The position numbers were made by a program, and so were the translations under genes. 64,000 bases of DNA, taken from Amoebophrya sp. A120. Taxonomy: Eukaryota > Protista > Dinoflagellata. The notes below the pieces were generated by a model. The model had not been told where the DNA came from, ran no database searches, and saw only the letters and a program-made list of their open reading frames with translations. The stretch covers positions 3,906,130 to 3,970,129 of the forward strand of contig CAJINV010000006.1 of NCBI GenBank assembly GCA_905178155.1, given 5' to 3'. Positions 2,239-64,000 of this stretch are shown one piece after another (the first letter of the stretch is position 1; the number at the start of each line of letters is the position of its first letter).

Positions 2239-4615
2239 TCACAAGTCTTTCCCCTGCGCGCATGAACTGCAAAAGTATCGTACTCGTAAAAATGCATTAC
2301 AAATTTCCTCCGCATGAGAAATAAAATTTGTAATGCTGATTTACCTTAACACAGGGATTTGTAATGCATGATTGCAATACGAGTACGATACTTTTGCACA
2401 GGATAGCGCGACTTTGGTTGCAAAGCTCCGCTTCTCGATCCAGATCAGGTGGTACCCAAAGTGTATGCAAGAAAAAAACTATGTGAGTGTAAGTCTGTCA
2501 TGCAGAAATTGCAAAAAACTGTTACACGTGTCATGCTGGACGTGCGTCGTAAGCTACTTTCATACGTTTTCCACGTGCTAGCTGCGCATCACAGATATTT
2601 TTCCCTGTAATTATACAAAACAAATTTGTGATGCTGCTCTTCCTGTTCCTACACCTACAAAGTTACACTTACACAGTTTTTTCCTCGATAAACTGGGTCT
2701 GCACGGACAGTATCAAATGTAAATAAAAGTATGTGTTTGGGTGTGGATGATGCAAAAGAACTTGAAGGACAGTAAAGATCTGTGATGCGTCGAAAGGAAC
2801 AATGGCGAGATGTCTTCCACCAATCATGCTACACACAAGTGAATTTTTCCTAAGAAGCCGACGAAAAGTTGTCATGGTCATGCTGCTGTGCCGCACAGTA
2901 AGAAGAGGCTCAGACATGCCTCAAGGACATCAAATTGTCTGCATCTTTGTGGTTCCAGACCAAAACGACATATTTTTCACCCTGCCTAGGCCCGTGCACC
3001 GTGTGCAACGGCTTTTCCGGATCGAAAATCACGCGGTCAAAGGCGGGTACCATCTATGCCTTGCAAAAGTATCCTCGCACTCGTTGTATTGCAGTCATGT
3101 ATTACAAATCTTTTTCTTAAAGGTAAATCCGCATTACAAATTTTGTTTCTCATGCTGAGGATGAAATTTGTAATACATTTATACGAGTACGATACTTTTG
3201 CACTGCATACCATTTGGCCATAGGCAAAATTCCCGAGCGATCCGCCCTGCTTGCCGCTGGGGCAGGAAACGTATGAAGTGGTTGATGAAGAATTTTGAAT
3301 TTTTCTTGGTCGAGAACAACATGCAGATCAACAACATTCTGCTACTTAGAACTGAAACAAGAGAACTCTCTTTCTGTAGAGCAGTCAAATGCATGACATT
3401 GACCAGCACGAGTACAATAAGCTCTACAAGCTGCTGCTTGTCTACTACACGACCAAAAACGACGACGAAAAATTCATATTGCATCACTCTCATCATGGAT
3501 ATAGAGTGCTTCCTGGCCAATTCCTCGAATCTTTCCAAGCGGTTGTCGATTTCGCTCTTTAGCTCCTGGGCTTTCGATTCCTGTGGATGTTGTTCCGTTT
3601 CATATTCATCTTCAGATTCATGCAAGACAGATCTGTCGTCTGTTTCATCGCACAACATTCGTTTTCCTTTTCGTATTGACATTTATTAAGCATATACAAA
3701 CCTGAGCAGCTGCTAAAATTGTTGCACGAAGACAAACTACTGTTGACCTCTGAAACGAGAATGTGACGGGCTGTGGCGCGATGTATCGGTTATGGAAGGC
3801 GGAAAAAGTGAATTTTCATTTTCTAGCAGTAGTTGCAGATACGAAGTCAAGGCATTCCTCAAGCGGGTGTCCTTCATGCTTTGTTCGACGTCCTTTGTTC
3901 ATCAGCTTCACCTGATTTTATTTCGTACCAATCTTTATCTCGTGGAAAGAAGTAATGATAGTTTTCAGCACTGTGCACCATCCTCCTGTCGTGCCCTCGT
4001 ATCTACTGCTCTACATCATTGTCATTCATTCTTTCCACTTTCCATACTGGCGACAGCAGACCGATTTTGACCAGCGGCGTGCGAATGAATTCCGGAATGC
4101 CGCAGACCATGATCAGCAGGCCGTATCCTGTGCAAAAATATCGCACTCGTACTAATTGCAAATATGCATGACAAATCCAACTTTCTACCTGAAATAGCAT
4201 GACAAATTGCATTTTTGTTCTTGGGAAAATTTGTAATGCAATCCACACTAGTACGATAGTTTTGCAATGCATAGGCCGATGCAGAAGACAATTTGTATCC
4301 ACCAGGCGCCAGCCTTGCTTTCCGGCGCATCCTGGTCGATATGCCTTGCAAACATGTCCTCTGGGTCCTCTAGAGTTCGTGATGCATGGGCATCAAATAG
4401 ACATCATCTATACGTACCTGTCATGCAAAAACGCAGTTTGCGTTTACCGCATGGCTGCGTACTTATTGCAGTGCCCCCATGGAAGCCCACTCCCGTAATT
4501 CAAATTGAAACAAAGAACGCTTCGTAGCATGACAACTTTCCAGTCCCAGATGACACGTTTGCAGTTTATAGACGATGACCTGCCTGGCGCCGGACTTCGG
4601 AACAGCGGCCGGCAT
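2239..4615 (-). CDS. Parvulin (PpiC-type) peptidyl-prolyl isomerase with an N-terminal transmembrane segment; 9 introns
   Basis: Hand-spliced protein: MPAAVPKSGARQV..WWIQIVFCIGLLIMVCGIPEF..HRATARHILVSEESKAQELKSEIDNRLERFEELARKHSSCPSGKQGGSLGNFAYGQMVPAFDRVIFDPEKPLHTVHGPVQTQFGYHLIWIEKRSFATKVAQGKDL*. Parvulin motifs ARHILV, SCPS..GGxLG.F..GQM and TQFGYHLI are present. Introns are 7 introners, one GT-AG intron (3581-3747) and one degenerate intron (~3272-3503). Confidence 0.9.
3791..4046. mobile_element. Introner family H (single, old copy)
   Basis: Ends TATGGAAGGCGGAAAAAGTGAA and TTCATTCTTTCCACTTTCCATA are imperfect inverted repeats. Removal fuses the TM exon to the parvulin domain in frame. Confidence 0.7.
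4124..4273. mobile_element. Introner family A (representative; ~24 copies, mostly ~145-210 bp)
   Basis: TIR TATnnnnTGCAAAAGTATCGTACTCGT; TSD GGCCG here. Other copies: 2261-2405, 3055-3209, 6534-6681, 8886-9035, 10110-10261, 18736-18883, 22761-22955, 25456-25610, 28841-28995, 29094-29258, 30978-31160, 31749-31904, 33635-33788, 33835-33989, 34884-35032, 35444-35653, 36343-36497, 41055-41205, 41596-41747, 46037-46233, 46257-48305, 62870-63019, 63876-end. Confidence 0.92.
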
Positions 4616-5972
4616 CCTTTTGCTTCTCTTGCTCGGCTGAAGATGACTGTCGTGTAGCAAATAAGTGAAGAAGGAATGCACTTCACGACGCGGACAAGAT
4701 GAAAATGGTAGATACTCCCTGGACCTGAAAATGTCGTGGCTGATGTTTACTGTCGGACTGGTTGTTCCTGTAGTTCTTCATCTTCTACGTTGTACTAGGC
4801 GAAATGGTTGTAAAAAAACACCTTCCAGCACATCCGGAAAGAGAAAGACAAAGACAACAAAACAACTGATATTCATGAGAATGCAAAGTAGTAGCAGTAC
4901 TGCCTACTAGAGCTGCTACAACTGTAGAAATGATCTGGAGCAGGGGAACCAACGAGAAAACCGTGGGAAAAAAGCTTCTGATAATAGTAGACATGCAGTC
5001 GTGGTTAAACAAGCTCGCAACTCGTCTTTAGCATCTACTTGTACGGCGAACACGTTTATTTCTTGATTTCCCTTCGTAACAAAATCCTTCGTTCGTCTTC
5101 ATTGAAGACGAACGAAGGACGCTTTTCATCAAGCTGAACTTGCTCGGTCGTTTTCGTTTTTTTTCTATATCATATATCAGCATGAAGTTGAAGAACATTC
5201 TACAGCCCGAGCATAGAAGTGAAAAATTTTCTCAGCATCTACATCACTAGAACTACGCAGCGCGACAGCAACACTATTTGCTTTCGCGTGTTGTGGTTCT
5301 CGTTGTGGTCATCTGCGCCCTTGATGGTCGCCGTTGTTCATCTCGTATAAGAGGAGCCAGTACTTTCTCTTCCACATGGATCTGAGTACTTATTCCATAT
5401 TTTTGATGCTTCGATTTTTCTCACTTGTCGACCTGCTCCGGGGATCTAATTAGTAGAAAAACTGGCGTTAAAAATACTCGAATTGGATGCGTCATGATCT
5501 CGCAGCTGACCACCAGCTCCTGCTGCATTTTAATTTACTTGATGAAAAGCGTGCTCAGACAGAATCAGTTCTAGTTCTACAGCGTTGATATTTTACTTCT
5601 CCACCTTCGGTCAAATCCTACATGATAATCTGCAATCGATCCTCTTCCTTCTTCCTTGATGCGTTGCAAACATATCCCGCACTGCTTGTGCACAAAAAAA
5701 ACTGCGGTAAACATCTTCACAAACAAAAAATCTGAAAGTGCACGTGGCCACACACCAACCCCTTTTCAAAGAAAATTCGGCCTACGAAAGCCTGAATTAG
5801 AATTTTTCCCGGTACTTATGTATACTATAGGCGAACAAGGTATCAGGCGGCACCATCAACCTGTTTTGTTCGTCGTCGTCCCCCTTCTCAAGTTGTCTAT
5901 AATAGAAGTCCACGCGGCGCTCCTTGATGTGCGTAGGTACTTCTGTAGTCCCAATTCAGCTCGAATAGAGAA

Positions 5973-7172
5973 TTAACGTGGCGGACGGTTCTCCTGGTCA
6001 CTCCCGTCGGAGTCGTCAAAAAGTCCCGCTCGCCGGACTACCTCATGGGGACCTTGCAAAAACAGAGCTCCGGCGCCGTCGTCATCGTGTCTCATCCGTT
6101 CGGCGGCATCTTCAAACTCAGGCTGCAACTCTCGAATGATATCCGGGCCGAAATTGCCGACTCGTCGTTGGCCGGCACGACCACGAATTCGCCGCGGCGC
6201 ATCGGGGACGGCAAGATCCCTCCGTTCCCTTGGCGGCGGTGTCACCTGCCGCGGCGGGGAACCAGCCTGCCGCTGCGCGTTTTCGAAGTTGCGAAGCGCG
6301 TTCTGCGCCGGCCGGTGGAGATCCGGGCTTGGGGATCTTGGAAGATCTTGGTAGGCACGGAAAGGAAGCGCCCCCACACCCGCCGCCGGAGGAGCAGCTG
6401 CTTGTGCTTGATGTTCTCCGACATTAATTCTGGCAAAATCTTCGAAGCCCAATAAACCTCTGGTCGTGCGCCGTTCTCGCTGCGGTGCGGCGGGAGGGGA
6501 ATTTGGTACCGGAGATCGGGATCTCCTAATCCTTATCCTGTGCAAAAGTATCGCACTCGTATTGGAAAAGTCACGCATTACAAATCTTTGTCTTAAGGTA
6601 AATCCGCATTACAAAATTTATTTCTCATGCTGAGGAAATTTGTAATGCATTTATACGAGTACGATACTTTTGCACTGCATACTCCCACCCAGCTGTGCTG
6701 GTCCCGGTGGGGGCGAGGCCGGAGGACCAGCTCGACGCCCAACGGGGGGAGAAGGGGTCCTCAATGTTGGGCGCGGGTCCGGGTTGATCCCTTCGCGGCG
6801 CTGCAGCCCTTGGGGCAGAGGCCCAACAGGTGGAAGTAGGTGACCGGGCCCCCCGCGATGAAGGAAACCAATTTGCTCTGGCTGCTGGTGTAGTGCTCCG
6901 GTGTATGTCGTAGCGGCGGCACTCCCGGCAGATGCAGAGCTTCGGCCCGTGGAAGTGGATGGCGCTAGTGCTACGTCATAAACATTATTCATCCCGGGGG
7001 ACGAAGAGGAGGAGCTGCTGCTGCCGGCTCCCAGCGACAAACCCGACACCAGCAGCGGGAAGGAAGCGAGATAGAAGTAGACCACCACGGCGGTGGTCGT
7101 TCTTGGGGTCCAGAACAACTGCAGCATTCTGAATACGTTCTTTGCCTGTAGTAGAGGGCTGATTGAAAACAA
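5973..7172 (-). CDS. Pro/Arg/Ser-rich low-complexity protein with one introner (6534-6681)
   Basis: ORFs 6651-7172 and 5973-6578 join in frame (..AQLGG-x-RRSRSPVP..) after removing the element plus 5 bp. Start uncertain. Confidence 0.6.
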
Positions 7173-8195
7173 CGTCGAGTTCTTGACGGGAAAGAAAAGA
7201 AACTACTTTTTAAAAGAGGAGATGTGGAGCTACTTGGTATTCTTTCGAGATCGTTTTTTAGTTGTGAGATAAACTTGAAAAAATTCTACGGAAATATATA
7301 GAAGTTCACTGCTATTTTTATGCAGCAGAGAACTAGTATAACTCAGCTGGAAATAATGGAAATGAGGCGCGATGGAAAGTAGAGCTCGCAACTACCGATA
7401 TTATCAAGGAATGATAGATCGATAATATGGCGAAACAAATTCCACATGTTTTGTCACCCATTCTGATCTTTGACCTTGAGAAGTTTCGATGATCTTCAAC
7501 TGCTGGCGCCACGGGCCAACAGAATGACAATACTAGACGTCGTGGAAATATAACAAAATCTGAATTATCGGATCATCGACATCATTCGGAATTTTTCTCA
7601 CGACTCTCAGTTCTCTTGGCACTTTGTTGAACATCACAGATCTTATTTTTGTCCCCTTCGAGTGATCCTGATCTGTCTTTGAAGAAAATTTCTTTGCAGT
7701 CCAGCAGATCTACTTTTACCAGCACCAGCAGTAGATCCGGATCGCGTAGAACCCAAACCAAACAACAGCCCTCATACATGCTGGAGTTCTTGCTGCTCCG
7801 GACAACAACTCCCTGTGTAGAAGTATACATACTTTATTATAGACTTACTACTTATACTAACTTTCTCTATCTTCAAAAAGTCTTGGTTCCCAATTGCATC
7901 TATACTTAGAACGAAGGAGAGAATGTTTGTTGTTGTTCTTCCTGCTGCTCGTGCTGGTAAAAATTTTGTTCTGCGTTTTATTTCCTGGTTCGTTGTCGTG
8001 CCGTTGGACGTACTTAGTTACCACGGAGCAACTGAACTACTAGCAGTACTCGAGGGTCGTGAGGAGAACAGCAATAAAGTTCCGCCTCCTCTTGGTCTTC
8101 GATTTGATGCTAACGGGCTTTTTACACAGGAGGATCTTCATGCAAGAACGTACTTGTGACCTATACGTAGCTACGGTGTCGTCTGCTCTCCTTCT

Positions 8196-11100
8196 TCAAA
8201 TCACCTTCGCCTCCTTCTATCCCACGAACAAACTATTTCACTGTGACGCTTTTGCAAGATCTGCATCACAAGTTGAAGTTTGTTAATACACATGACCGCA
8301 GAAAAGCTACCATGCGCGCTTCCCAAGGGATGAGATAAACACGCTTAAAAATTCGATGTTCTATGCAGGTGTAGCAAGACAAATACTTCTGTGTTGCATT
8401 CTATGCACCACAAGTTCACAGCGAAACAGTTTTTTCTTGCGATACGTTCTTCAGCTTATCCACTAGCTCGTCGACGTCTGCCACCTTCTATGAGAGTGCA
8501 CAACTTGTTCCCCTCCCACTCATTTGTATGGCATGAACAACAGCATCACAAGCAGCGCGCAGACTGTGTCTTTGGCATCACAAATCGTCTCCTGCGCAAG
8601 GATTCTAGTGCTGTTTGAGGTCGTCGTCGTCCCAAAAGCAAGATTTCTTATGCATCGAGTGCTTAAAGGGAACAGCGAGATGTCATGTCGCGTACTTCTA
8701 CTTGGTATTATGCATTACAAATGAGGAAATCAAGTGGGGTTGTGCAGTCTCATACCTTCACCCCGGCCGCCCTCACCGGCGGGTCCTCGACGGATAAAAT
8801 CTTCATTTTCGGTGCCAAATCGACGCCGAACGACGCGGCCTCCACCTTCTCCAAAGGTTTCTTCTTCGCTTTCATCAGATTCGGCTATGCAATGCAAAAG
8901 CATCGTACTAGTATAAATTGCATTACAAATTGGCTTGGCATTACAAATTAAATTGGTAATGCGGATTTGCGTTAACAAAAAGATCTGTAGTGCTTAAATG
9001 CAATTAGTGCGAGTACGATACTTTCGCAGTGCATATCGGCAAGGTCGCGTACCGTGGATCGTTCAACCGCAAATCGGCCGTGATCACCGCCGGCAGGGAA
9101 AGCTTCATCGTTTGAATCCCCGCGTCGACTTCCCGCTCCGTGGTGAGAGCCTCCGCGGTATGACAGTGCACAATTCCCCGTCCCTCTCATTTGTCATGCA
9201 AAATCACAATTCCACGCGCTGCGCTGCTTTGAGGCACCGTTTGCTTGACAGATTCATCTCGAGGAAGCCTAAGCAGTGCTACGCTACGCGCATGATGAAC
9301 TTGTCATGCTAGTAAACAAAATGCGACACACTTTGCCCCCCCATTGTGCCATGGCCGCAGATGATGAACTTGTCATGCGCAGACTTCATTTGCGCTGGTG
9401 TTTCTATTGCTGCTCACGCAATACAAGCGAGGGGGAGGGAGAGTGGTGCACTCTCATAGGCGGTGCCGTCGATGGAGGAGGTGAAAGTGGACTGGGGCCA
9501 GTTGAGCAGCCCCGCGAGGATCTGTATGCTACGAAAAGAGTGCTACAGTTGCACATTTGTAGTGAATTCAGCAACACAAATTTCTCTGCATGAGAGAGAA
9601 ACCCTGCAATGCAGAAATCCTACGGGAAAATAAACAGCTCTGAAACGAGGCTCCTATGCATATCCGGCATGACAGAGCTTGTCTGCTTTGCTTGGCCTGC
9701 AACACAATGTGTAACTGTAACACTTTTTTCTTGCGATAATCTGCCCCACCTGGTTACTGTCCGAGTCGATGGACTGCTTACTATCAAAGGCAAAAGCGTC
9801 TGGGTCTGGAAGGTTGGAACTTGTGATGCTAACTTTCGACTCTAAAAAAATCTGCATTGCATGACCAGCAAGAGGAGTCTAGCTTTTGCTACGCGGGGAG
9901 AGCGTTTGCCATGCGGAGTAGGCATCAGGAAGGGTTCTAAAAGTCTGTGATGGTAGGGCATGCATCACAAACAATCCTGGGTCATGCAAAATACGCATGA
10001 CAAACCCGGCAACATCCCAGACCCAGACACTTTTGCATTTGATATTTACCGCACAAAACCAAATTCGGACTCTCCTTTTCTACCACTTTCTGCAACAGCT
10101 TCGCCGTCGTATGAAATACAAAACTATCGTACTCGTAGTATTGCGATACAAATTAGCTCAGCATGACAAATGGAATTTCTCTTGCTGATTTAGCTTGAAA
10201 ACGCAATTTGTCTTGCATGACTGCGATTAGTACGAGTACGACACTTTATTTGCAGAGGATACACCGCCAGAGGTTGCAATTCCTGGTCGGTTCGCATGTC
10301 GGTCGTCAGCAAAATCGCTCGGTCTGCACCCATCGCGAGACTCTGGCGCATATGGATTGCAAATATGTCTGGGTGTGGAAACTTGTAATGCTCAAAGTGA
10401 ATGATAGACGCGCCACAATACGCAGCTATGCATGACAAATTTTGTGGCTGCCATGTCTTTACGTATTCCGCATGGCAAACTGCCTTTTCGCATGACAGTT
10501 AAGAGGACTCTTTCGTGCCTACGCAACACAGATTCTCGAGTCATGCCAGACAAGCATGACAAACTTGCATTCTTTCAGACCCAGACATTTTTACATTTGA
10601 TAGCGCAGCACTTCCTGCGATTTCTCCGCCCCGATGGAAACCGCGATCAACTCTGTCAGCAGACCCTGTTATGGCAGCGTCAGGACCGAAATTGGCAAAA
10701 AGTTGAAAATGAAAAACAACAAAATGTGTAATGCACAAAATGCAATCTTCCTCCACACGAATCCTGTATTGCAGAGCAGGCTAGGAAGGACACTGGAAGC
10801 CTGTTTGAGGATAGACATAGGGGGGGCTGCTAAAGTAGCATGGCAAAAGATCCCTTTTTTCCCCAAACAGCTTGACAAACTAAACTCGGGTGATTATACC
10901 GAAATTTGTCAAGCGCCGCCCAGAAATTGGGCTTGCAACTGGTATCGAGGATTTTACGCATCACAAATTCATTTCAACTTTGTCGATTTCGACTCTGACG
11001 TTTCCATACCTTTTCCTTCATGCGGATACCTTCCTCGACCGCGATCTCGCAGAAGTGTTGTGAGGAAAAACATCCCCAACCCAATTAAATTTGATGTCAA

Positions 11101-11396
11101 CATGTCGAGCTGCATGCCCAGGATGTGTTTCATGCGCAGCAAGCCCGTGACGAGCTGCGAAGTTCACAAAACTACCACCTTCCTTTAGCGGAAATTATTC
11201 CATCTTGACAACAACGATGGGCTAGGGTTAGGGACGTTTCTACTCAGGGAGATACGAAGGGGTTCATGCTCATCTTCACATTCTTGATTTCGACCCCGGA
11301 CTTGTCTTTTGCGACGCGCACCTTGACCGCGTAATCAATGACGCGCTTGACACACACGAGTGCCTTGTTCTGGAGAAACGGAGACGGACGAAGCAT
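8196..11396 (-). CDS. ETFB: Electron transfer flavoprotein beta subunit; 10 introner introns
   Basis: Spliced protein contains [128 protein letters not shown], the classic ETF-beta motifs. Confidence 0.95.
8489..8754. mobile_element. Introner family I (representative; ~6 copies)
   Basis: TIR TATGASAGTGCACAA followed by a C-rich tract; TSD CCTTC. Other copies: 9159-9458, 18979-19296, 24508-24744, 44407-44641, 45335-45546. Confidence 0.82.
9525..9738. mobile_element. Introner family C (representative; ~12 copies, mostly ~210-235 bp)
   Basis: TIR TATSnnnGAAAAAAAnTGT; TSD ATCTG here. Other copies: 2464-2690, 8218-8444, 26966-27191, 28586-28793, 32476-32704, 32739-32947, 35109-35317, 37269-37478, 37980-38190, 43295-43528, 50707-52708. 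Confidence 0.88.
10351..10602. mobile_element. Introner family B (representative; ~31 copies, mostly ~230-320 bp)
   Basis: TIR TATnnnnTGCAAAWATGTCTGGGTCTGGAA; TSD GCGCA here. Other copies: 2711-2988, 4340-4570, 9782-10044, 12275-12537, 16315-16565, 17105-17393, 17443-17699, 18359-18629, 19362-19622, 22159-22430, 23247-23499, 25001-25259, 27809-28070, 30676-30936, 31430-31696, 31960-32211, 32992-33262, 34040-34317, 34468-34726, 35705-35964, 36049-36309, 36562-36825, 37536-37798, 41924-42801, 45706-45962, 48344-50016, 53689-53963, 60389-60705, 60810-61133, 63538-63792. Confidence 0.92.
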
Positions 11397-12231
11397 GGTT
11401 GATGGTTCTTGCCGTCAAAACTTTTTTATCAGTGTTCTTTTTTGATTTTGCGAAATTTTCTTTGTAACTGTATCTTTTTGTACTATCACGAGCGACCGGC
11501 GTGGAATACGAGGTAAGTGTGTTTAGTATATGCGCATGGCCCAACTAGAGCAATACACGACCTTTCTTTTTCATCTCGCAGTAATTGTAGTTACACAGAT
11601 TTTTCAAATTCGTCCACAAGGCTGATCATGGTTGTGATGCGTTGCTTCTCTAAACTTACTCTCAACTACAACGCTAAGTACAGCAACCTCATCTCTCGTC
11701 TCGTCGTCAAATGTCTTCGCTGGTACAGCAGCAAGAGCAAGGTTTCATTTACGCAGATGCTCTTGAAACTGCAACAAGCGCTCGCCTAGTGCGGAAGACA
11801 GATCACACCAAGAACGACGAACAAAGAACAGGCAACGCCTTTTCGCGGAAACTCGTGTGGCCGAAACAGCGGTCATTCCAGTAATATGCCAAGATTCCGA
11901 CCTCATGCGAAGAGAGGATCTTCACTTCTACAGAAGAACACGACTGGTGGCGCCACCTCATCAAGGAGCCGATCTGTCGTCTCGCGCAGAAGTATGGTAC
12001 AACGTTGTGTCGGGAGTTGTCCTCGCCATGCTGCTAGCTCTGAATCTTGTTTGAAACAACCGAGTACAACTTCATCTCCAGCAGTAGCGAAGCGGTTTTT
12101 TACTTACTGTGCAAAAACCGTGTCAAATGCGTCGAGTGCGACCCACGACCACTTCTGATTTTATTCAAGAAGTTGTGCACGACTGCAGTCAGAAGTATAG
12201 TTGCAGTTCTCGTGCAAAGAATTATCCTCCT

Positions 12232-12950
12232 CAAGGCTTCGCATCCGGCTGGAAAATGACGCCAATGTAGGTCGTATGGATTGCAAAAATGTCTGGGTCT
12301 GGAAGAATGCAGGAGTTTGTCATACAGATTTTGCATCACCCATGAGGTCTGTGATGCTGGCCGAGCATCAGAGATTTTGCGAGGGCTTTCTGATGCTCAT
12401 ACCGCATGAGAAATGCCCTCTCCGCGTAGCACAAATTGCACCTCTTTTGCTCTTCATGCAATACAGTTTTTATGTAGATTCCAAGTGTAGCAACACAAGT
12501 TGTATCCTTCCAGACCCAGAAATTTTTACATTTGATAGGTCGGTATGGTTTCGATCGTGATCCCGTCGCTGGATATGGATGTGTCAGGATTGAAATCGAC
12601 GAAGATGAAATAACTTGCAATGCATAAAATAGATGAAAATTGTAACCCAGATTCCAAGTGGTGCATGACAACTTTGAGTAAGGCCGAAATCCAGTTTGTC
12701 GTCCTGTTTGGGTAAGGAAGACGCCTTTTGTCATGCTACTTTAGCAGCTCAGTTTCATTCTACTCCTCAACAGGCTTACAATCTGCCTCACTTGCCTACT
12801 CTGCAAGACATGCACTTTGTGGGCTGCATTTTATGCATGACAAACTCTTTCAACTTGAACTTTGACGATTTCAATCCTGACATTCACTCCCATACTGGAC
12901 TTCTTGAAAATGAACACGTCGCCCTCGTACCCACTCGTGTCGCCAACGTT
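12232..12950 (-). pseudogene. 3'-terminal fragment of the PIMT-like gene (copy 1)
   Basis: Encodes NVGDTSGYEGDVFIFKKSSDGITIETIPTYIGVIFQPDAKP*, near-identical to the ends of copies 2 and 3. Homology stops near 12950. Confidence 0.6.
12574..12894. mobile_element. Introner family G (representative; 3 copies)
   Basis: TIR TATGG..TGTCAGGATTGAAATCG; TSD CTGGA with an empty site at ~16280. Other copies: 10670-11008, 17955-18273. Confidence 0.85.
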
Positions 12951-13609
12951 AACAAGTGCCGCTCTTTGCGAAGTGCGTACTGCGCTTGAAGATGGACCGC
13001 GGCTACTGCTTCTGCTCAGTGTTTCAACACAGCTACCGTCGTTGGCACCTACCACCTACTTCCTTACTTAGAGGTGGTATGATTATTCCTCAACATTCGG
13101 ATGGCGTCTCCTCCAGAGGCTGCTCGGCCCTGTCCTGCTTGTTGGTCCCATACGGACCACCGTTGGGTCGAGCTCTCCCGCTTCGCTCCTTCCAAGCCGC
13201 ATGAGCTCCTCCCCATACTGCTTTGCTTCCAAGACCCTGCTCCGTACTTCCCGGTCCCTGCTATCCCGAAGCAACTCTCCCTGACGCTGCCGGCGGTCTC
13301 TTTCCGCCGCTCGTCGTGCTTCCTCTTGTTCCCTCGCCACAGTTCTGGGAAAAACAAGAGAGCGAATCCCTTGGCAGCAGCTATTATATACCCTGAATAA
13401 GTTATCATGTAACCGTTCTTGTAAAAAAGTGAATGCTGTTGCAATAAATGGCAGAAAAATTGGGGTTAGTGAGTACAGGCTGCATGTAATTATGCACAGT
13501 GTCACTTTTTCACGTCAAAAATGCATGTGCCATTTATTTTTTCACGCGCCATCACGTTCTTCTATCAGCGAAGGAAGCTGCGAGAAGATCTTCCGTGAAG
13601 TATTTCACT

Positions 13610-14990: not shown

Positions 14991-15896
14991 TTGCTGGAGT
15001 CAGCACTTGTTAGATTGCTTTCACTAGGAAAAAAAATGGCGGCTTTTTTTTTGCAATTTTCCTGTATTTGACGCGTCTTTTTTGTTTTTCTGTATTGTTC
15101 TGACAAGGCCGCGAAAATTGACGAGATTATCAGTAGCAGCGAGCGATACATATGATAGGTGGTTTATCATTCATTCTTCCTCTTTGGTTGGCGGGGAATA
15201 AAGCAACAGAGTTCATACAAAAACTTCTTTTTCACGACAATCTCACGACAGAAAAGCGAGTCTGGCTGACATCCTCCCACGGCGACATTGTTGAATACTT
15301 ACTCGATATTATACGAAGAGAGCACGACGTTGCCGTTGTCCCTGACGAAATGAGCACAACCAAGTACAACCTTCATCTACTACGAAACTCCTTCAACGAG
15401 TATTGGTATTCCCGTGACAAACGAATAACGATGATCCGAGCATATCTCTTTTTCTTTGAAGATGTTCATCGTGCTTGACTGCAGTTTTAACTTTACTCGA
15501 CGAAATTCTGATTCTTATTCTTTTTCACGTCCTTACATTTTTAAAAACACAAATCCGCCGTCGTGGTCCCTTGAACCGTCTTTCATCAAAATCGTCCTCA
15601 AACTTCCGCTTCTGAATTTGATGATTTTCTGTCTGTTCATACGCATGAAGATTTTTCTTCCGGAACAACCAGAACCAAGCACAGTGGGGGAAAAACTATA
15701 GCTTGTCTCCACTTCGTTTGCCGACGTCTCGTCGAAACTATATTACACAGCACGCGCGTATAGATTTCCATTCATTTACCCCAGCTCCTGGCGGTCTCTG
15801 CGGAACCGATGTGTCGACCGTAGAAGTGCGCAAATACCACCGTGAGCCGCAACTAGCTAGTCCGCAGCAAGTCATCTACTTCATCGATCGCGCCCC

Positions 15897-17850: not shown

Positions 17851-17879
17851 AAAGTCATCTACTTCATCGATCGCGCCCC

Positions 17880-53482: not shown

Positions 53483-56400
53483 TCTTGTTTCTTCTTTTTA
53501 GACAGCTTGCGCTGGTCCAAAAGTTGCACGGGTAGCAGTTGAGTAGAAGTACCGGACGACGGCCCTCCTGCGGCCGCGGCGGTCGTGGTAGTTTCCTTTG
53601 CCTCTGCCGCTGACGTGTCCATTGGGAGCGGGGCGTTGACGGCGAACGCCTGCTGCGCTGCTGGGGAGAGTTGCTGTAGTTCAGTCGCTATGCATTGCAA
53701 ATACGCCTGGCGTCATGGGAAATTGAAATAAGTATAAAGATAGCAACGTCCGTAATGCATGAGTGCGAGTGCGTGCTTTTCTTGTATCTATTTCTCCGTG
53801 CAGGAAGCCAATTTGTCAGGAGGAATACGGCAAAATTCGCGGCATCACGCGAAAAATTTCTGATGCGCTCATGCCGTACAAAGCATCGCTCTAACTGTGA
53901 TGCAAGACTCAGCAACACAAATTCGCTGCATCTTTCCAGACCGAGACATATTTGCAATGCTTAGTCGCAGCTGCTCTCACTGCCGCTTCCTCGTCTTCCT
54001 TTTGCTTGGGCAGTTCCAGGGGGTTGCGCTCGGTCTTCCTTTTGCTTTTCGTCTTCGTTTTCCTACCTTAAAATATTTTCAGAAATGAAGGTAGCGCAAT
54101 TCATGTATATTCCTTGTTCTTACTAAAGTCAAAGGTCAGAGTCAGACTTGTTCGCGCAACGTACAAGTATATCAACGTAAAATTATTAAACGCTAAATAG
54201 AGCATAAAAATTGAGAATGAGAACACAAATGTAAGTAATCGAAGATCACCTGCCTTCCCACGGAGCTGCCGTTCCTTTTCCGGTGCGGGCCCCTTGTAGT
54301 TCCGAACAATTTTCCCGACAACTACATCCGCAAGCTGGTACTGACAAAGAAACATGACCTGCGACCGTAGGAAGAACCGCGCAAAGGCCGTAAAGACGAT
54401 GTTGCGCTGCATGTTTCCTCGCCGAGCTGGTACTGTTTCACCACGACTTCTGCAACTTCTGAAAACGCGAATACACTGACCGGCAGTAGCAGTTTCCGTC
54501 CCCGTGTCCGTTTTGTCGCCCCGGACAAGATAATGTCCAGCACGAGAACTAGGGGCGACCACTTTTCTTATTTCTTGTGTTTCGCGAAACTAGAAATACT
54601 GACTTGCTTGGCGCGCAAAGGTAAAGTCGGTGTAGTGGAAAGAACAAAAGTTTTAGAGCGTGAGCGGATTACTTATGTCGTAAGTAAAGTATCGCTTTTC
54701 TTCCCCGTTCTTGTTGTGAAGGCCCCGAAGGCAAAAAGAAAAAATGTCTTCCTTTTGTTTTGCTTTTCTTGACGCCATGGACCACGAGCCATATTATTTA
54801 CAACGAAGCACGACGATGGTATGCAGCTTTGACGAGTACTAACAAACAAGCCCCAACATTTAAGAGGATCAGCATTCCTGCGACGACGTTGATGTCTATG
54901 TCTGTTCACTGCTTTTTTTTTTCTGTTTCCATGAAGCGACACGAAGATCACGACCACAATATTAAACGAACGAAGATCTTCATAAATAATCGATTGAGCG
55001 AAGGCCGAGCAATCGATGAAGATTTTTTGTTTGTTGGGCGGGGCGACACAGAACCGCTTGGAAGTTTTTCTTTCGCCTCGTCACGTCGTTAGCGCTACTT
55101 GAACAAAAATACGAACTGGCCAAACAACTTGCGTCCATCGATGAACATGGGGGCAGATGGGGGCGACAGGTGACCGCGACAGGTGAAAACATAAAGCAAC
55201 TTACACTGAATTACTGCGCCCCGCATATTACAGTGCGCTGCTGGCGAAGCAGCTAGCGTGATCTCTCGTCGGAGATTGTGTATCATTGCCGAGAACACCA
55301 GAGGCTCGAAAAGGTGATGCTAAGCGTGAGCCGCCTACGCTTCCACGTCGCCATCGGTCAGCATGCACATTTTTGTACACTGTCACTGTCTGTCAGGCAT
55401 GCGGAAAAATGCATTGCAATAAAATTTCATACACAGTTTCCACCCTCATTTCCGTGCAATACAAGAAGAAACCATGTGCCAGAAGAATTTGCGTTACGCA
55501 GTCCGAAAGATATTGGCTGTCACGAACTTTTCTCTTTCGATCAGTAGCGACATTTTTGTGCTATCATCTTGCGCCAGGAGATCCAAGAACCGAAGCCGAA
55601 CGTCGACCGAGGGGCTTTTAGGTAATTCCTGTTCCTCTTCAAATTTTTACACTGAACCACTTCCACTGCATACAGAAGTCTGCTGCTGGTGAAGCAGCTA
55701 GCGTGATGATCCCTCGGAGATTTTGTTTCATGATTGACAAGAACACCGGCGGCTCGGAAACGTAATATAAGGGTGATGTGCCACCTCAGCCGCGGCTACA
55801 ACGGCGAGTGCTTTGTTTTTGATATGCTCTGCCTTTTCCCGTGGTTTCTTGAACCCAAAATATGGTAAAGAAATAAATTTGTCGCATGTATCAAATGTTT
55901 ACTATTATTTCTTGTCCCATGTGTAAATAATGAAATAAGTCCAGCAGGTTTGCTACGTTAGCTTTCGCCGAACCTACTGGGGCAGGCTATGCCGTGAAAG
56001 TAGGTGGAACTTCTACGCCGGGAAAACAACAGCTTCATAGGTGGTCATGCGAGCTTCTTCTTCGGCTGTCTTGCGTCTTTTGTCGATTGCGCTTGTGCTG
56101 GTGACTGGAAACAAGCGCGACGAGAGAACAATACCTGCGATGATGTTGTTTTAGCGATTTCGATTTGTCTCGCACATCACACGCCGCGAGAAGTGGGTTG
56201 CGCGAGAGTGCCGCTTCGAACAAGTACATCTTCACAGACAGACCACGGGGCCGAAAGATTGATTTGTTGCATGACAAAGTAGAAGTCTACTCCTTCTACT
56301 TCTAGCCTACAAAAGTACAAAAGTACCTTCTAGTATTCGCTTTCGTTGCCAACTTCGCAGAGGGTACTTATAACTTCGCCTTTTGTACTGCTTCTACTGG

Positions 56401-58663
56401 TGCGCCTACCTCCCTCTGTCGGTTGCACAGGTTCTAGATCTAGATCAGACGCACGACGACGGCGAGAGTACCTGTATAAAGTGATGCTTCGTGGTTTCAT
56501 CACTCGAATGCAGCACGAAACACCCACACGTCGACGTAGAACCCAGTGTGGCTCTGCTGTTGTTCAGTGGAATCTGTATGATTATTGAAATCTGTTCGAC
56601 TCTAAGCTTTAGATTACATATCTGTATAAGTTTAAGTAGCTCGTCACAACAGTACAAAAATACCTTCCGTTCGGTGTCAACTTCGCAGAAGATGGTATTT
56701 CGCATGTGGAAGTACTGCAGCGTCTACTTTGACTGTCTTCATCTTGTGTTCATTGCGCTGGCTCTGGTACAAAAGCAAGACCAGAGATGTCTGGTACAGA
56801 AGCAGCGACCTGTGTGTAAAGTGGTATTGAGTGATTCTTTCATACTAAGGGGAAAAGTTCAAGAATAAGAATCCGAGCAAAAATTGCTTAGGGGGCCCAG
56901 CGACGGTAGGTGCTGGGTCGCGGTGTTGTAGTCTTTTTGTAGTAAGTACAAGACAAATGCCACACACAGAAGAAAAAGGAGAAAATACAAAAGGCCGGCT
57001 GCGGCCCCACCCCCAGGCTGCGGCCCGGCGCTTCTATGGCCCGGCCACCGCCCCGGCCCCGGCCTCGCCCGATGCTTTTGTTGGCCGGGGAACCCAAAGG
57101 GAGCCGGAGCCCAATTCTGTGGCCCTTTCGGAGGGCCAAAAAATCTCAAGGGGGGGCCTCCGCGGGGGCTTTCGCGGGGGGGTCTTCAGGGGGGTCGATC
57201 TTTCTATTCTTGAAAACTCAACACCCATGCTATGGTGCCGATTTGGGGGCTCAGAGGGGGGGCGCCAGTTTGCCGCTTCCGGACCCTTTTCGGAACCCCC
57301 CACCCTGTCCATTCTTGAAAACTCAACGCCGATTGGTAATTGCCTATTTTCATGCTAATCACGATCTATAAGCAAAAAGGCGCGCGAGTATTGAGACTGC
57401 CACTTTTTTGTACGGAGTGTCTCCTCCAGACCGATCCGAAAGTGGGCGCGCGCGATGCTTCTGGGCCACCCTCACGAGCCACCCTCCCCGGTTTTCCCGC
57501 TGGAGATGTACCTCGCCGACCTCCAGCGCGGAATCCATTTCGTCATCTGCTTCTGCGCCCTCGTCGAACCCGCCTAGCTATTTTTGCAAAAATTCTTATT
57601 CTTGAACTTTTCCCTGTAGTATTTCACTTACTTACTTTATTCATCACAAAAGACCCCGCCCCCACAAGGAGGAGGGTCCGACTTTACATACCGATACCTG
57701 CATGATGAAGATCTTTGCCGCGAATCCACGAAAGAATCCTGTGGTGTCAGTGTCACTGAGTGACACGAACTTCGCATCGCAAAACAACCCATACAGATCC
57801 TACAGCAGCACCGTAAACACTTACCTTCCGCCGCCCGGTCCAGATTCCTGCTGCATAGACTACCCGACAATAGGTCGTGCTGCGCTACCCGACAATAGGA
57901 GAAGCCGTCTTCGCATCGCGAGTACTGTTGTAGTCGACCATAGGTCGCGCCGCGCTTCTTGCGGTTGTTTCACCCCGTGCGCAGTGCCCCTTCCAGAGAG
58001 GTTCGTTCTATATGAGTGATGCTTATGGTTCTACATAATAATCGGAAGCGTGCTCTTGTGCTACTTGTAATCCCGGTAAACATCTGAAGTTGCAAGTGTT
58101 AGGATAAGATTTAAAATTTATAATCCAAAACGGTTCTGATTATTAACGATCTTCGCAATGCGGAAGTAATTGGGTAGGCTATATTTGTAATATTTTTTGT
58201 AAGATAGAAGCTCTTGTGTATGAAAAAGTAAAGTGCAATAGGAGGTGATCAGTGCCAGCTGTAATATACGATATCGAAAACCATACTAAGAAGAAAGATG
58301 CTAAAAAATGGAAATTGTTCAAGCAACAACAAAAACGGATATGATCATCTGGAAAAATGCATTCACATTCTGAAGCAAATCGTTGAAAATTTTAAATTTG
58401 CACTTTTTGGTGTTGGTCGGTATCGACGATGTAAATCTCGTATTCGCGGATGTAGGTCTCTCGGATGTAAATCTGATCGGGTTCGCATGCGGTATCAAAG
58501 TTAAAGACGCAAAAAAATGAAAACATGAAGTAGTAGTAAACAAAAGAACTCCCTTGATGGGTTTTGCTGTGCTAAACAAAAATCTGCTTTGTGCATTTGT
58601 TTTCTGGTTCCACCATCCAGCGCGATCATGCAGAGCAGTTCTTTTATTCAGAATCATACTTAC

Positions 58664-60786
58664 TTAGCGATACTTACTTAGCGAAACCACCTTGCTGCCA
58701 TCCGGGCACGGGTCGCTCATATCGCTGTATGGGTATTTGGCGCCGTTGTTGTATGGCGTTGGTCTTTGGTGTGCGTCCAACGAGCACAACTCGGTGATAA
58801 AAGTCGAGCCGGTGTCGAAGTAATTCCGGCACAAACCCTGCTGACCCGGGTCGGCTTGGCCGGGGAACTCGGCCATCATGATGTTATCGCATTCCTGCTT
58901 CTGGTGAACTGGCGCTTTCAAAACCGGGCAGCCACGGTCGTCCAATTTGAAAGGCACGTTGTCGTTCCCCATCGACATGGCATCGCACCTGTAGTTGCTC
59001 TCAGGTGGCAAGGATAGGTGGCAACGGCCGTCGTTGTTCTTGGTGAATCACTTCCCCATGCCCCGCTTCCCCACCTCCCCACTGCCCCATGGTGGGGAAG
59101 TGCTTCCTCCGTGGCGGGGAAATGGGGAAGCCAACCCCCGCATCCCCACCACCCACTGTAATACCTTCTCGCCCGCAGCTGCGCTCAACCACGTACCTAC
59201 CTATGTATGTGGCCGCCCGCCACAAACCTGGCGGCAGACACAGGCGGCCGGATGTGCAACAACGCACGGGGCGCGCAATCTTGTAAAGAAACATGACACG
59301 GGAAACACGGTGGGGGCACACTAAAGGGCCACGAAGAACGAAGGCGAGTAAGGGGGGGGAAGAGCCGAGGCACGGAGAGAAGGGGAGGCGCGTTCAGGGA
59401 AAAGCGGCAAAGCGGGCGGCGGAGAAGCACCGCCGCGGCCCCGAGCCCCAAACCCTAGACCCTAAAAAACAAACCGGCCGGCGGCTCCATGCCTCACCGC
59501 TCCAGCTGCAGTGAGGTGGTGCAGGGCAGGTGGGGAGGCAATGCAGAGGACGTGCGTGGGGCAGTGCTGCAGGTGCGGATGCGCGCCGTGGGGAGGTGGG
59601 TTAATGGGATGGGAACGTGATTCACGTCCTTATTCTTGTAGGGCTGCACGAAGACCTTGGTCACGACCCACCCCGCCATCTTCTGCGGTCCTCCCAAACC
59701 ATAATTTTTATCGTAATTCATACAACCGTTCTCATCGCATCCATCGCAATCCAGCATCTGGGGCGCCTGATTGTAGGTGCAGTAGCAATTGTTTTCAGCT
59801 GGTGTCGGTCCATCATGAGCCCACCACCGGTCGTCCGACATCGAGGACTTGTCCTGCATCATGACCGCGGCGAGGGATTTCGACTTGCCCTTTTTCTTGA
59901 CGACACACGCTATCAAGCTCATAAGTACCCCGCCCAGAAAAATGCAAACAAGTGTTTGCAATGCACAGTTCCCACACGGCAATTTTTTGTCTTGCATGAA
60001 GCCCATGCGATTCAGTTTGCCTTTGTTCAACAAGAATTTACTACCATGCGGCCTATGCAGCAGTAGAGCGGCCTAGTTCACATATACTCATTCTAGTATC
60101 GGAAGTTCTCATATTAGCATATTGCAACACTCCTGCGAAACCTCATAAGATGGTACTGATTCTGCTATGTGCAATTTGTGTTGCAGTTCTCGCTGATACT
60201 TCCTTGCGAGAAGATTCCGGAGAAAACTGAAAAGTTTTGCATTATACAAACACTCATCTTCCAACATTCGGGGTCTAGGGCACTTTCAATTTTGATACGC
60301 GCCTCTCCTTGTTCCGTGACGACCTTGTTCTCCAGAAAGGTTCCACCGACCTCGCTGCCCGCCCACGCGTTGGTAAACTCCAAATCCCTATGCATCGCAA
60401 CTATTTCTGGGTCTCGGGGGATGCAAACGAAGCTTACGATGCGCATTCTGCATCACAGGAAAATCTCGCATCGCAAACCAGCAAAAGTTGCTCATTTGTT
60501 TCCTATCGCTACCAGTTAAAGCGGATTTATTTTCATGCGGATTTTTAGGCATTTTGATTTTTTGAGACACCTTCACCTTCTAGAATGTCCAAGCTGCAAT
60601 GCTAGAGCTTGCATGCCAGCGCGTCTGGGCAACGAACCGAAAAACAGCATGACAAAGGTCTGCGTCTGCACCCTTCCAGACACAGAGACATATTCACATT
60701 CGATATTCCAGGGAGGTGGTGGTGGTGTTCTTCATCGCGGCGACTTCGGGTGTCGCACCAACCGCCACAAAGATCGCTTGCTTCAT
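58664..60786 (-). CDS. Cys-rich, possibly secreted protein; 3 introns
   Basis: MKQAIFVAVGA..|..GEAR|VVKKKGK..NNCYCTY..LDCDGCDENGC..YKNKD|NNDGRCHL..SKYR*, in frame after removing 60389-60705, 59911-60297 and GT-AG intron 59039-59625. Confidence 0.7.
59039..59625 (-). other. GT-AG intron derived from an unrelated inverted-repeat element
   Basis: Minus strand GTGAATCACGTTCCC...GGGAAGTGATTCAC-CAAG. Flanks TAAGGAC/CAAGAAC resemble a 7-bp TSD. Splicing is in frame. Confidence 0.7.
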
Positions 60787-62497
60787 TTTGCAACTTGCGG
60801 GACGAGCTTTATCAAATGCAAAAATGTCTGGGTCTGGAAGATTGCGAGGTTTGGTTGGTTGGTTGGATAGCGCCTGTCGCCGGTGCAGGTCCCGCCCTCC
60901 ATCGATTGAGGTTTGTCATGCTTGTCTGGCATGACCAAAAAGTTTGTGATGCGTGTCCAAGAAGAGACCATTTTTCTTGTCATGCAAAAACGTAGTGTGT
61001 CATGCGAAAAACGCAACACAAAGAAGCGCAGACATTTCTCATGCTTGGCCGTGCATTACAGAGCGAGAGCATTCACTATTCCCAACGAAGCATTACAAGT
61101 TTCCAGGCCCAGATGACATTTTTGCACTTGATAACAAGCTTGGGACAATAACAATTCCTGTTTCTAGCTGTAGAAAAGAGTAGGCTTTTCGTAACCGCTC
61201 CGAGGCGATTTAAACGAGGGTGTTCTAGAGGTGAGTCGTGTAACGACTAGCGGAAAAAAACTTGCTTTTGCTCCTGGATTTGTTGGTTTGTAAGTAAATG
61301 AGCATTTTTTACATCACTGATGGACGACGTTGAATGATGATGGTAATAGGCTTTCAGTGTTTCTTGCACGAAAGATTTTTTATCGGATGCTATAACTTAG
61401 TTTTACAATCGATTATATTGTCAAGTGGAGTCGCACGAAAATCTTAGCACCAGTTTACGACTTTTAGTTGTACTTCACGTATGAATGAGAAAAGATGAAG
61501 TGAGAACTTCCAGGCAATCGACGAAGAGGTGGACCTGACCAGAACGAAATTACAAATCGTACGAATCTTCCTATGTCGACGAACTACGCACATCATGTTC
61601 TGGTCAACTACAAAACGAATCAAAGGACGACGAGTGAGGAGAGTATCTCGGTCAAGTAGAAGATCTCGGTGCTACTACATCTATCAGCACTACTACGAAA
61701 GGCGTGCTTTGTTGTTCCCAGCGACAACCACGAGGACGATACGATATAGGATTTTGATTTTCTTCTTCTTCACCAAGCAATTCATAAAGTCACAGCTGGC
61801 TTGATACTGCTGACCCCAACCATCGAAAAGAACAGACTTGGTACTTGTTCATCGACTGATATAGCACATTAATATTTATGAACAAGGACGAGCTACTGAT
61901 CATGGTATGATACGACGGCTGCTATTGCTTTTCGACGAACTTCAGTTTACTTTTAAAACTTCATCCAAGCATTCAACACGCCAATAACGCATGCACTACT
62001 ACATACCACAACCACTAACAGATTGTGATTGCGTCTTGTTAGCATGACATAGTAAAATTTTTTGAACGTGCTAGTACTGTATCACGCCAGTTCATCGGCT
62101 CAGAGTCTTTCGTTCGAACACACAGCTGGAAGTTATGTTTAAGTACTCACCAGCCCAAAAAATGACGTGCGTGGTGCAGCGTGCAGCACCTGCAGCAGGA
62201 AGACTTGGATATACAGGGTCATCAGGTCGAGAAGCGTGTGAAGCTCAAGCTTTTTTTGTTGTAGGGGTAATTACAAGTTGTCCTTTTTGTTTCATATCAG
62301 GAGCGTGCGGCGCAAACCGGCGTGCTGACGGTTTCAGGGCGTTGAAAGGTGCGGGTTCTCCACGACCTTTCCGCCAGGGTTGTGCTGCTGTTGACACAGG
62401 ACGCAGATGTTGTACCAGATGTGATTGTGAATGCGGTGCCAATAGAAGAAGTAAGTATTTACACGACATGTCATCATCATACGGAAGCTGTCGCGTC

Positions 62498-64000
62498 CTA
62501 CTTCTTTGACGTCGTTATCCTGAGTAAAAACGTCCCCACCCCATAGTCAAGACGGAGATCTCGCAGCACAAATCGATAAGTTTTGGGAGGCAAGCATGAC
62601 AAGTTCCTCTCTGTAGTGTAGTGCAGTTTTTCAAGCACAGCCGCAACACAAATCCATCTAGTCATCCTGTTACTGTTCACATCAGGATTACACAAAGTCC
62701 AAAACACGACTGGAAACGCCTCTCGTGGGGATGCGCATTACAAATCTTCCTGTAACTGCAAATCTGCATGACAACTCTGGGGTGGGGACGTTTTTACTCA
62801 GCATAGTCGTTCCCGCTTGTTTTTGCTCCTCCTGGTCTGTTTTCACCCCGTACATTTTCTTCAACAATTTATGAACTGCAAAAGCATCGTACTCGTAGTA
62901 ATTGCTGTTATGCATGACAAATCTCTCTCCGAAGGTAAAACAGCATTACAGATTTGATTTGTAATGCTGAGCTGATTTGTAATGCGATTTATACTAGTAC
63001 GCTACTTTTGCACAGGATACAATTCGTTTTCCTCCAATTTTGCCTGGATATCCGCCTTTTTCTGGCGTATGGGGCTCTCAAATCGGTTACCTTCTCAGCT
63101 GTTCCATGAATTTGTCATGCAAAACTCTCATCAGTATCACTATCATCAAGCTGCTTCGCATGACAAATTTCCGAAGGGCTAAATGAGAGCATCTAAACTT
63201 GTGCCGAACCTGTAATGCAAAGGCGCGTAAGCTTTTCCCTTTCACTTTTGCGGTTCTTGCATTACAAATTTCATGTAACAGTTGAGAATGTAACTGACTT
63301 GAGAACGCCATATGACGGTTTCGCTGGTTGTAGTAGAGCAGGACGAGATACCTGGAGATCACATCAAGAAGAGTGTCGTTGACAATGATTTAGTTCAATT
63401 TTTCATTTTCATCAAAAAAAAGCCTCTTAGGACCACCAGGGTATTCATCTTGTTTATTTTTTGCATGACAAACTATAACTACACAGCACGCAAATAGATG
63501 AAGATTTTAGCAGGATCATTTATATGGCTGTGTTTTATATCAACTGCAAAAATGTCTGGGTCTGGAAACTTGTGATGCAACTGCAAGTCCGTGAACAATA
63601 AGTGCTCTGTGATGCGCCGCAAGCATGACAAGTTTTTTCGTGCTTCTGTGATGCGTATTTCGCATGAGAAACTGTGCTTTTGCATGACAGCCAAGAGGAC
63701 CTCTTGGTGGCCGCGCAATACAGAGTGCAGAGTCATGCCAGACTAGCATGACAATCTTCCAGACCCAGACATTTTTGCATTTGAATTTGATACTTTATAC
63801 CTTCCGTCCACATTAAACCCGGACAAACTGTCCAAAGCCAGCTTCGCATCGTAAATATCGTCGTAGACCACGAAATATGAACTGCAAAAGTATCGTACTC
63901 GTATTGCAATCTATGCATCACAAATCTTTTTCTTACGGTACATCAGCATTACAAATTTTCTTTCTCATGCTGAGGAAATTATTTGTATAGGCATTTCTAC
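62498..64000 (-). CDS. 3' part of an uncharacterised gene running off the window; at least 5 introners
   Basis: Short exons between introners, ending ..LLKKMYGVKTDQEEQKQAGTTSKK*. Confidence 0.5.

Follow-up and report, generated by a model that had tools for sequence, protein, structure and literature searches.

A short motif shared by non-alignable introner families of Amoebophrya sp. A120 recurs in pairs about three helical turns apart and may be a DNA site for a common mobilising machine

We have investigated a 64,000-nucleotide stretch of the dinoflagellate Amoebophrya sp. A120 (contig CAJINV010000006.1, positions 3,906,130 to 3,970,129 of the forward strand; hereafter the window, with coordinates counted from its first letter), in which the octamer TGT[CAG]ATGC recurs within short inverted-repeat elements that are removed from RNA as introns. 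In their TAT-N7-AAA ends, direct repeats and non-canonical removal the elements agree with the introners already published for Amoebophrya A120, and the motif is a real feature of this known element class. Comparison of the window and 39 metagenome loci, which together constitute the data, supports the motif being under selection and common to families that do not align. We consider it rather probable, from sequence, that the motif is a site in double-stranded DNA at which a single mobilising machine, common to all families, acts, and for which the candidate reader is possibly an integrase-type transposase.

The octamer occurs 255 times in the window, counting both strands, over a span of 2294..63953, against a simulated expectation of 9–10 copies at Markov order 1–2 and 43 at order 4. 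The versions TGTCATGC, TGTAATGC and TGTGATGC contribute 119, 71 and 65 copies, respectively, and the version with T at the fourth position, TGTTATGC, is present merely 5 times. Copies are concentrated within the elements, 234 of the 255 falling in 84 curated elements at a density of 10.8/kb inside and 0.5/kb outside. Of the 21 copies beyond them, 14 lie in decayed, nested or truncated elements delimited by hand, and the remaining 7 in 35 kb, with 5.4 expected, correspond to the chance level off elements. Within 22000-30500, where one exon edge was deduced from contig coordinates, 3777 bp of exon contain no copy and 4724 bp of intron contain 44. These observations bear out an earlier reading of the window made from its letters (the sequence-only reading), which had described the motif as present in both orientations, common to dissimilar families and rare in exons; all six positions that it gave as examples (2294, 2496, 9191, 10383, 15981 and 62766) hold a copy starting 33–45 bp inside an element end. 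Its statement that the outermost copy usually lies ~30–45 bp inside the end holds for only about half of the ends when the exact octamer is counted (83 of 168 at 30–46 bp, 93 of 168 at 26–50 bp), and degenerate sites occupy many ends that lack an exact outermost copy. The fuller, looser consensus is approximately A-A-Y-Y-T-G-T-V-(A/T)-T-G-C, with variants including TTTCTCATGC and TCTGTATTGC, and across the profile sites the fourth position is T at merely 5 of 575 while C, A and G interchange freely. We take as probably coincidental that TTTGTNATGC(A/T) resembles the vertebrate Sox-Oct composite element and CATGCA the apicomplexan TGCATGCA motif.

The curated carriers (n = 84) are mostly 145–390 bp long; their inverted ends read TAT..ATA and their target duplications measure 5 bp. 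TAT is present at 165 of 168 ends per position and A occupies positions 11, 12 and 13 in 145, 148 and 157 of the 168, which yields TAT-N7-AAA. An exact 5-bp duplication is found in 54 of the 84 elements and an exact 4- or 6–9-bp duplication in none. Subfamily grouping of window and metagenome copies, performed independently of the family letters A–I of the sequence-only reading, indicates that the elements recur as families, and insertion occurs in either orientation with respect to the host gene (15:14 in subfamily SF0 and 6:9 in subfamily SF1). For one exon, the best species-labelled match is to Amoebophrya sp. AT5.2 (79%, covering 30% of the query). Further copies were obtained from metagenomes with a family-agnostic bait, two motifs 30–34 bp apart, which matched at least 120 loci. 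Of these, 39 carry the same families with a best-hit identity of 67–91%, at least 27 of them under the assembly prefix JACKZZ01; 81 of 120 were dropped, having no similarity to the elements, and were taken as chance or tandem repeats. The retained loci yield 148 more elements, 113 of them with a perfect 5-bp duplication, and the element detector returned 0 in 101 kb of shuffled sequence. One duplicate element arising from overlapping loci is counted in the element, subfamily, strand and conservation sets and was removed for singleton rates. No more distant lineage with the motif occurs among the metagenome matches listed, and viral contigs gave 0 matches to the pattern of terminal inverted repeat (TIR) plus motif and 34 motif-pair loci, none resembling the elements.

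Alignment between families was examined with 24 representatives, trimmed by 30 bp at each end and with the motif masked, using shuffles as a baseline. The representatives fall into ~12 groups, with within-group z values of 5–40 for most pairs; between groups, most interior pairs are at the shuffle level and a few reach z 5–8. Thus, the families do not align end to end, the circumstance under which, according to the sequence-only reading, sharing of the motif would reduce to simple descent. In 12 subfamily alignments, deviation from the family consensus is 4.5% in the motif core, 22% in the five flanking bases and 19% in other interior columns. Lineage-invariant columns make up 89 of 97 in the motif versus 178 of 394 in flank plus other interior in the four alignments with at least 10 copies (p ~1e-18). 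At the family level the motif therefore does not decay at the rate of its neighbours and persists where the flanks diverge, as had been proposed. Position 4 of the motif is the exception with 24% deviation, neighbouring motif positions being stable.

The recurring unit is a same-orientation pair of motifs 30–33 bp apart, 31.5 bp being three turns of the DNA helix. In the window elements alone, 33 of the 149 same-orientation pairs separated by no more than 200 bp have this spacing. When profile sites are used, such a pair is held by 9 of 12 non-alignable groups, and 14 pairs are present in the 12 groups, whereas 5000 random placements gave 2.0 on average and never more than 8. Of the 12 representatives, three are without a window member, and window copies of two of those groups still show the pair. 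Convergent pairs 15–16 and 47–48 bp apart are also frequent in window elements. Inward-reading outermost sites cluster at ~36–37, 44–48 and 59–61 bp from the element end, with 10.5-bp phasing from that end at p=0.002 for the 24 representatives and p=0.04 for 12. With respect to similarity between the repeats and the TIR, 43 of 464 termini reach the motif-site threshold and 92 a low threshold.

Removal of the elements from RNA is best documented in a host gene at 21261..38302 on the minus strand, in which excision of 40 elements, each with one 5-nt duplication, leaves a single stop-free frame of 6792 nt (~2260 aa); its exon pieces match no Pfam family at the curated cut-off. The stop-free frame fixes removed length modulo 3 only and the additional 5 nt are fixed by contig joints, which derive from contigs of four probable RNA runs (two samples, one study) whose RNA nature is a prediction. 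Among the joints listed, the removed length equals the element plus 5 nt exactly at 15 of 15. These introner introns, all on the minus strand and spanning 22159..30417, are 22159-22430, 22761-22955, 23247-23499, 23636-23886, 24508-24744, 25001-25259, 25456-25610, 25742-26911, 26966-27191, 27284-27518, 27809-28070, 28195-28517, 28586-28793, 28841-28995 and 30139-30417. At the joint 22756->22957, where the duplication has diverged, the cuts can be placed at 1 nt outside the 5' TIR and at 4 nt beyond the 3' one, a register with which two further joints are compatible. The contig is a mosaic of the two diverged duplication copies, which argues for spliced RNA and against an empty allele. The 1/4-nt register predicts N-T donors; the nine predominant A120 splice pairs in Table S4 of PMC7789003 all start NT, and the 113 elements with host strand called from open frames have donors GT (34), CT (28), AT (27) and TT (24) with 16 different acceptors. 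No canonical introns were identified within the RNA-checked stretch, and one raw RNA run mapped 182 reads, all on repeats, which is uninformative on splicing.

The motif shows no polarity with respect to the transcript. In the same 113 oriented elements it has 153 sense and 166 antisense copies, and a copy is found within 50 nt of 73 of the 5' ends and 64 of the 3' ends, with no 3' excess. In the 15 RNA-supported introns the exact motif is present on both strands in 6, only as UGUNAUGC in 3, only as GCAUNACA in 5 and not at all in 1, sense UGUNAUGC being missing in 6 of 15 and GCAUNACA in 4 of 15; a looser profile places sites on both strands in 11, on one in 2 and on the other in 2. The decayed copy at 22761..22955, with no exact motif and one weak profile site, is precisely removed in 4 runs. 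A Group IV element at 25742..26911, which contains an 869-bp nested insert, has no exact motif nearer than 907 nt to its 3' end and, on the RNA, only GCAUNACA copies, and it is precisely removed in 3 runs. In the Group IV element 30139..30417 all sites have one orientation and only UGUNAUGC is on the RNA, removal being documented by RNA, and in its relative of opposite orientation, 36876-37151, only GCAUNACA is on the RNA, removal being supported by the frame only. The distance of the motif from the intron 3' end varies from 25 to 907 nt and the cut follows the TIR. The consensuses of subfamilies SF5, SF7 and SF9 have all sites in one orientation, so that copies cannot pair with each other, and the SF9 interior folds like its shuffles (z ~0) and that of SF5 near chance. 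Mismatches in the TIR gave no clear asymmetry on the sense strand (57 G-U versus 47 A-C). Combined, the strand balance, the splicing of introns with the motif on one strand or absent, the 907-nt case and subfamilies SF5, SF7 and SF9 rule out that a polar signal on a single strand is required, and they show that self-pairing does not suffice to explain the motif.

These properties would fit a site read in double-stranded DNA, and a mechanism can be proposed in which the motif would be recognised in twos, the sites of a pair being separated by some three turns of the helix. One transposase, or a host cofactor that it needs, may occupy a number of sites along the same helical face, and the bound protein would bring the two element ends together and make a 5-bp staggered cut. 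To serve as a source element, a copy would need a sufficient number of well-spaced sites, a selection that would keep the motif while the spacers drift. On the RNA, the terminal stem would define the intron, and the cuts would be placed at a constant distance from the paired ends, independently of the motif. The transposase-site option of the sequence-only reading thus agrees with the anatomy of the elements; a transposase was not found in the frames scanned, and such a role is put forward here as a candidate one. The best candidate for the enzyme is an integrase-type protein similar to the fragment that PMC12130899 reports in A120 family 38.

A number of observations weigh against this interpretation. 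No transposase or integrase family was found in 61 of 79 long frames (from the loci, with 6 from the window) or in 40 of 76 short frames of nested inserts, no autonomous partner sharing the ends and repeats was found in the window or the metagenome loci, and the text of PMC7789003 reports no transposase in A120. Motif sites are spread over the entire element, beyond the subterminal zones, 3 of the 12 groups lack the 30–33 bp pair, longer spacings are weakly phased helically (p=0.017, p=0.058), and the motif-pair bait favours the pair in the metagenome part of the data. The interiors of some subfamilies fold beyond shuffles (z of -3 to -7 in SF0, -5 to -6 in SF1 and -5 to -6 in SF6), and contigs carry no information on splicing efficiency. 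Three comparisons concern decay after insertion: the slower singleton rate of the motif relative to other invariant columns described below, from which decay may be below neutral; the closest pairs, in which 6 of 333 motif cells differ and 10 of 318 conserved other cells; and 29 copies found without using the ends, in which the motif deviates 7.5% versus 14.7% for TIR positions 14–28, a set that includes other subfamilies and therefore mixes lineage and post-insertion change.

Decay was measured as counts on observed sequences. Singleton changes affect 38 of 1831 motif cells (2.1%), 160 of 3963 cells in other invariant columns (4.0%) and 45 of 1639 cells at TIR positions 14–28 (2.7%). The two copies of the target duplication mismatch at 5.7% per pair, ~3% per copy, a difference that mostly accrues after insertion; the motif singleton rate is near half of the 5.7%, and thus the motif does decay in single copies. 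The elements at 12574..12894 and 17955-18273 derive from one insertion, in a gene since duplicated, and form the sole pair with purely post-insertion differences, 1 of 3 motif copies having changed. The singleton rates and the duplicated insertion fit a motif that decays neutrally once inserted and is constrained in source lineages.

Any DNA-bound protein would be compatible with the lack of orientation and the helical spacing, and one alternative is that a host protein on the DNA motif marks the element for removal during transcription, intron identity lying in chromatin and being read in either orientation. The motif may have been kept in part after insertion, 39 of the 40 introns of the long gene retain at least one exact copy, and U1 small nuclear RNA (snRNA) was not detected in A120 according to the text of PMC7789003, all of which this proposal would accommodate. 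We regard it as unlikely, as the motif-free 22761-22955 and the remote-motif 25742-26911 were precisely skipped and the cut tracks the TIR over the whole range of motif distances. A combined version, in which a DNA-bound protein reading the phased pairs would be a shared mobilising adaptor and would also set a co-transcriptional mark for a U1-less spliceosome, with intron identity again in double-stranded DNA, appears decidedly unlikely. The sequence-only reading had offered an RNA-level signal for intron definition that replaces the branch point and pyrimidine tract, an idea favoured by the confinement of the motif to introns and by the splice dinucleotides, which are unconstrained so that another feature must define introns. 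It does not survive the absence of strand or 3' polarity and the splicing of introns with one strand only or no motif; U2 snRNA and homologues of the splicing proteins SF1, U2AF65 and U2AF35 are, moreover, reported in A120 (PMC7789003). As a single-strand polar signal this reading is largely refuted, and among the alternatives it is the one to which we give least credence.

Two further alternatives dispense with a reader. The motif could be a relic of common descent or mosaic exchange, lacking a present function: all groups have TAT ends and 5-bp duplications, hence probably one origin, the termini that score as sites may mean that internal copies derive from end sequence, and a few cross-group alignments exceed the shuffles. 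In a relic it is difficult to account for the persistence of the motif, its spacing and the exclusion of T from position 4 when the spacers of most groups cannot be aligned with one another, or for a position that is free among C, A and G with fixed neighbours, and we consider this explanation very unlikely. The motif could likewise be a building block of stems in RNA or single-stranded DNA, having no sequence-specific reader, for which the folding of the SF0, SF1 and SF6 interiors and the common convergent pairs speak. Pairing needs no single fixed sequence, however, the one-orientation subfamilies SF5, SF7 and SF9 and the near-chance folding of SF5 and SF9 run counter to it, as does the balance of TIR mismatches, and we regard it as highly improbable. 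The reading that we favour thus remains a DNA site for a common mobilising machine.

The introners themselves are known. Farhat et al. 2021 (PMC7789003) describe those of A120 as having TAT ends followed by seven looser bases and at least three A, short direct repeats, a length of ~240 nt, non-canonical splice sites and many families, as observed here. They report repeats of 3–5 nt and argue against general transposase-mediated mobilisation, whereas the duplications here are uniformly 5 bp; an internal shared motif, a spacing rule and a fixed splice register are absent from the searched text and supplement text of that paper, figures (Fig. S25) aside. In the survey of Gozashti et al. 2025 (PMC12130899) most A120 introner families (among the first 40 of the 58 listed), similar in length to these elements, are left unclassified as 'TIR DNA, Unknown'. 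Family 38 is listed as Ginger, '5-bp TSD, TA/TA Termini' (TSD, target-site duplication), with an open reading frame resembling a Copia-associated putative transposase; by that listing alone it is like the present elements in duplication length and termini. The survey treats families as mechanistically diverse, whereas here one motif and one spacing extend across groups, and its main text makes no mention of a subterminal or internal motif, nor does the accessible text of PMC12005148 and PMC11282704 mention the motif. The sequence-only reading knew of no description of the motif, and none of the motif or its spacing was found in the literature searched; the carrier elements are already described, and what appears to be new is the motif plus spacing.

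Several short repeats in both orientations inside a non-autonomous TIR element, a trait of miniature inverted-repeat transposable elements, are present here. A close parallel in arrangement is Arabidopsis Emigrant/Lemi1 (PMC1636448), also a non-autonomous TIR element with short internal repeats, direct or reverse. Its repeats are related to part of the TIR and are bound cooperatively by Lemi1; Emigrant is pogo-like and one family, whereas here the motif fills the elements of ~12 non-alignable groups and the elements are spliced. The ends of Tn7-like elements (CRISPR-associated transposons, CAST; PMC10201428) contain several TnsB sites spaced by helical pitch, a 5-bp flanking sequence and a host bending protein; they are bacterial and multi-protein with TG termini, and the likeness is one of architecture only, with no homology shown. 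Ginger2/Tdd elements (PMC2836005) are also TIR elements, of which TDD-4 and TDD-5 make 5-bp duplications; Ginger termini are TGTNR and those here are TAT, such that the elements agree with Ginger in having a 4- or 5-bp duplication but not in terminus, and the frames scanned contain no Ginger transposase of the Gypsy-integrase-like kind.

Families that do not align have the motif, the spacing rule and the duplication length in common, which suggests that a single mobilising system may lie behind the tens of thousands of non-canonical introns that A120 gained. The motif provides a bait for the reader protein and a signature for the autonomous element, and the fixed cuts, 1 nt ahead of the terminal stem and 4 nt past it, allow splicing to be tested apart from mobility.

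The window elements are distributed as follows. Group II (~150 bp, ends TATN5GCAAAAGTATCGTACTCG; region 2261..63019) has members starting at 2261, 3055, 4124, 6534, 8886, 10110, 18736, 25456, 28841, 29094, 30978, 31749, 33635, 33835, 34884, 36343, 41055, 41596 and 62870, with diverged members at 22761 and 35444. Group I (250–290 bp, ends ..AAAATGTCTGGGTCTGG; region 9782..63792) starts at 9782, 10351, 12275, 16315, 17105, 17443, 18359, 19362, 22159, 23247, 25001, 27809, 30676, 31430, 31960, 32992, 34040, 34468, 35705, 36049, 36562, 37536, 45706 and 63538. Group III, together with similar-ended elements (210–235 bp; region 2464..43528), starts at 2464, 8218, 9525, 26966, 28586, 32476, 32739, 35109, 37269, 37980 and 43295. 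The smaller groups IV–X span 8489..63312 and start at 30139, 36876, 41222, 42941 and 62516 (IV), 15938, 16599, 28195 and 40215 (V), 8489, 9159 and 24508 (VI), 23636, 27284 and 63068 (VII), 10670, 12574 and 17955 (VIII), 33293 (IX) and 40696 (X).

The insert within 25742-26911 occupies 25776-26644 (869 bp), starting with TC after an A and ending with a GC hairpin and then CTGG before a T, with no duplication; its ends are Helitron-like. A second copy resides inside a different introner at ~775-1572 of metagenome locus L022 (88% over 554 nt). Other introners contain nested inserts of 0.5–1.8 kb of unrelated kinds, at 41924-42801, 46256-48304, 48344-50016 and 50707-52707 in the window and at L044 632-1465, L015 2129-2941, L035 433-1641 and L009 6584-7838 in the metagenome loci. 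Because removal follows the element ends, introners may be safe landing sites for inserts. Long TAT..ATA elements of 0.8–2 kb turned out to be short elements with nested inserts. A nested inverted-repeat element at ~2200-2730 of L015 also runs from TAT to ATA, but its duplication measures 8 bp and it lacks an exact motif; this single case suggests that the motif goes with the 5-bp system. Tandem and GC-rich repeats are found within nested inserts at 46350-46460, 47690-48180 and 50890-52400, a 463-aa low-complexity frame among them having no Pfam match.

In the element at 29094-29258 both terminal TAT triplets are damaged, and contig coordinates still imply a precise 170-nt removal, as deduced. 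At 41206-41552 and 41894-42831, contigs of one run cross, without splicing, two elements whose ends are damaged or interrupted, possibly reflecting intron retention, or pre-mRNA or DNA contigs. Tandem paralogous gene copies at ~12200-12950, 15900-17750 and 17870-19000 differ in their introner sets and thereby present filled versus empty sites. Exons at 19623-20307 and 13610-14167 (minus strand) have a PCMT methyltransferase match above the cut-off and weak EF-hand matches.

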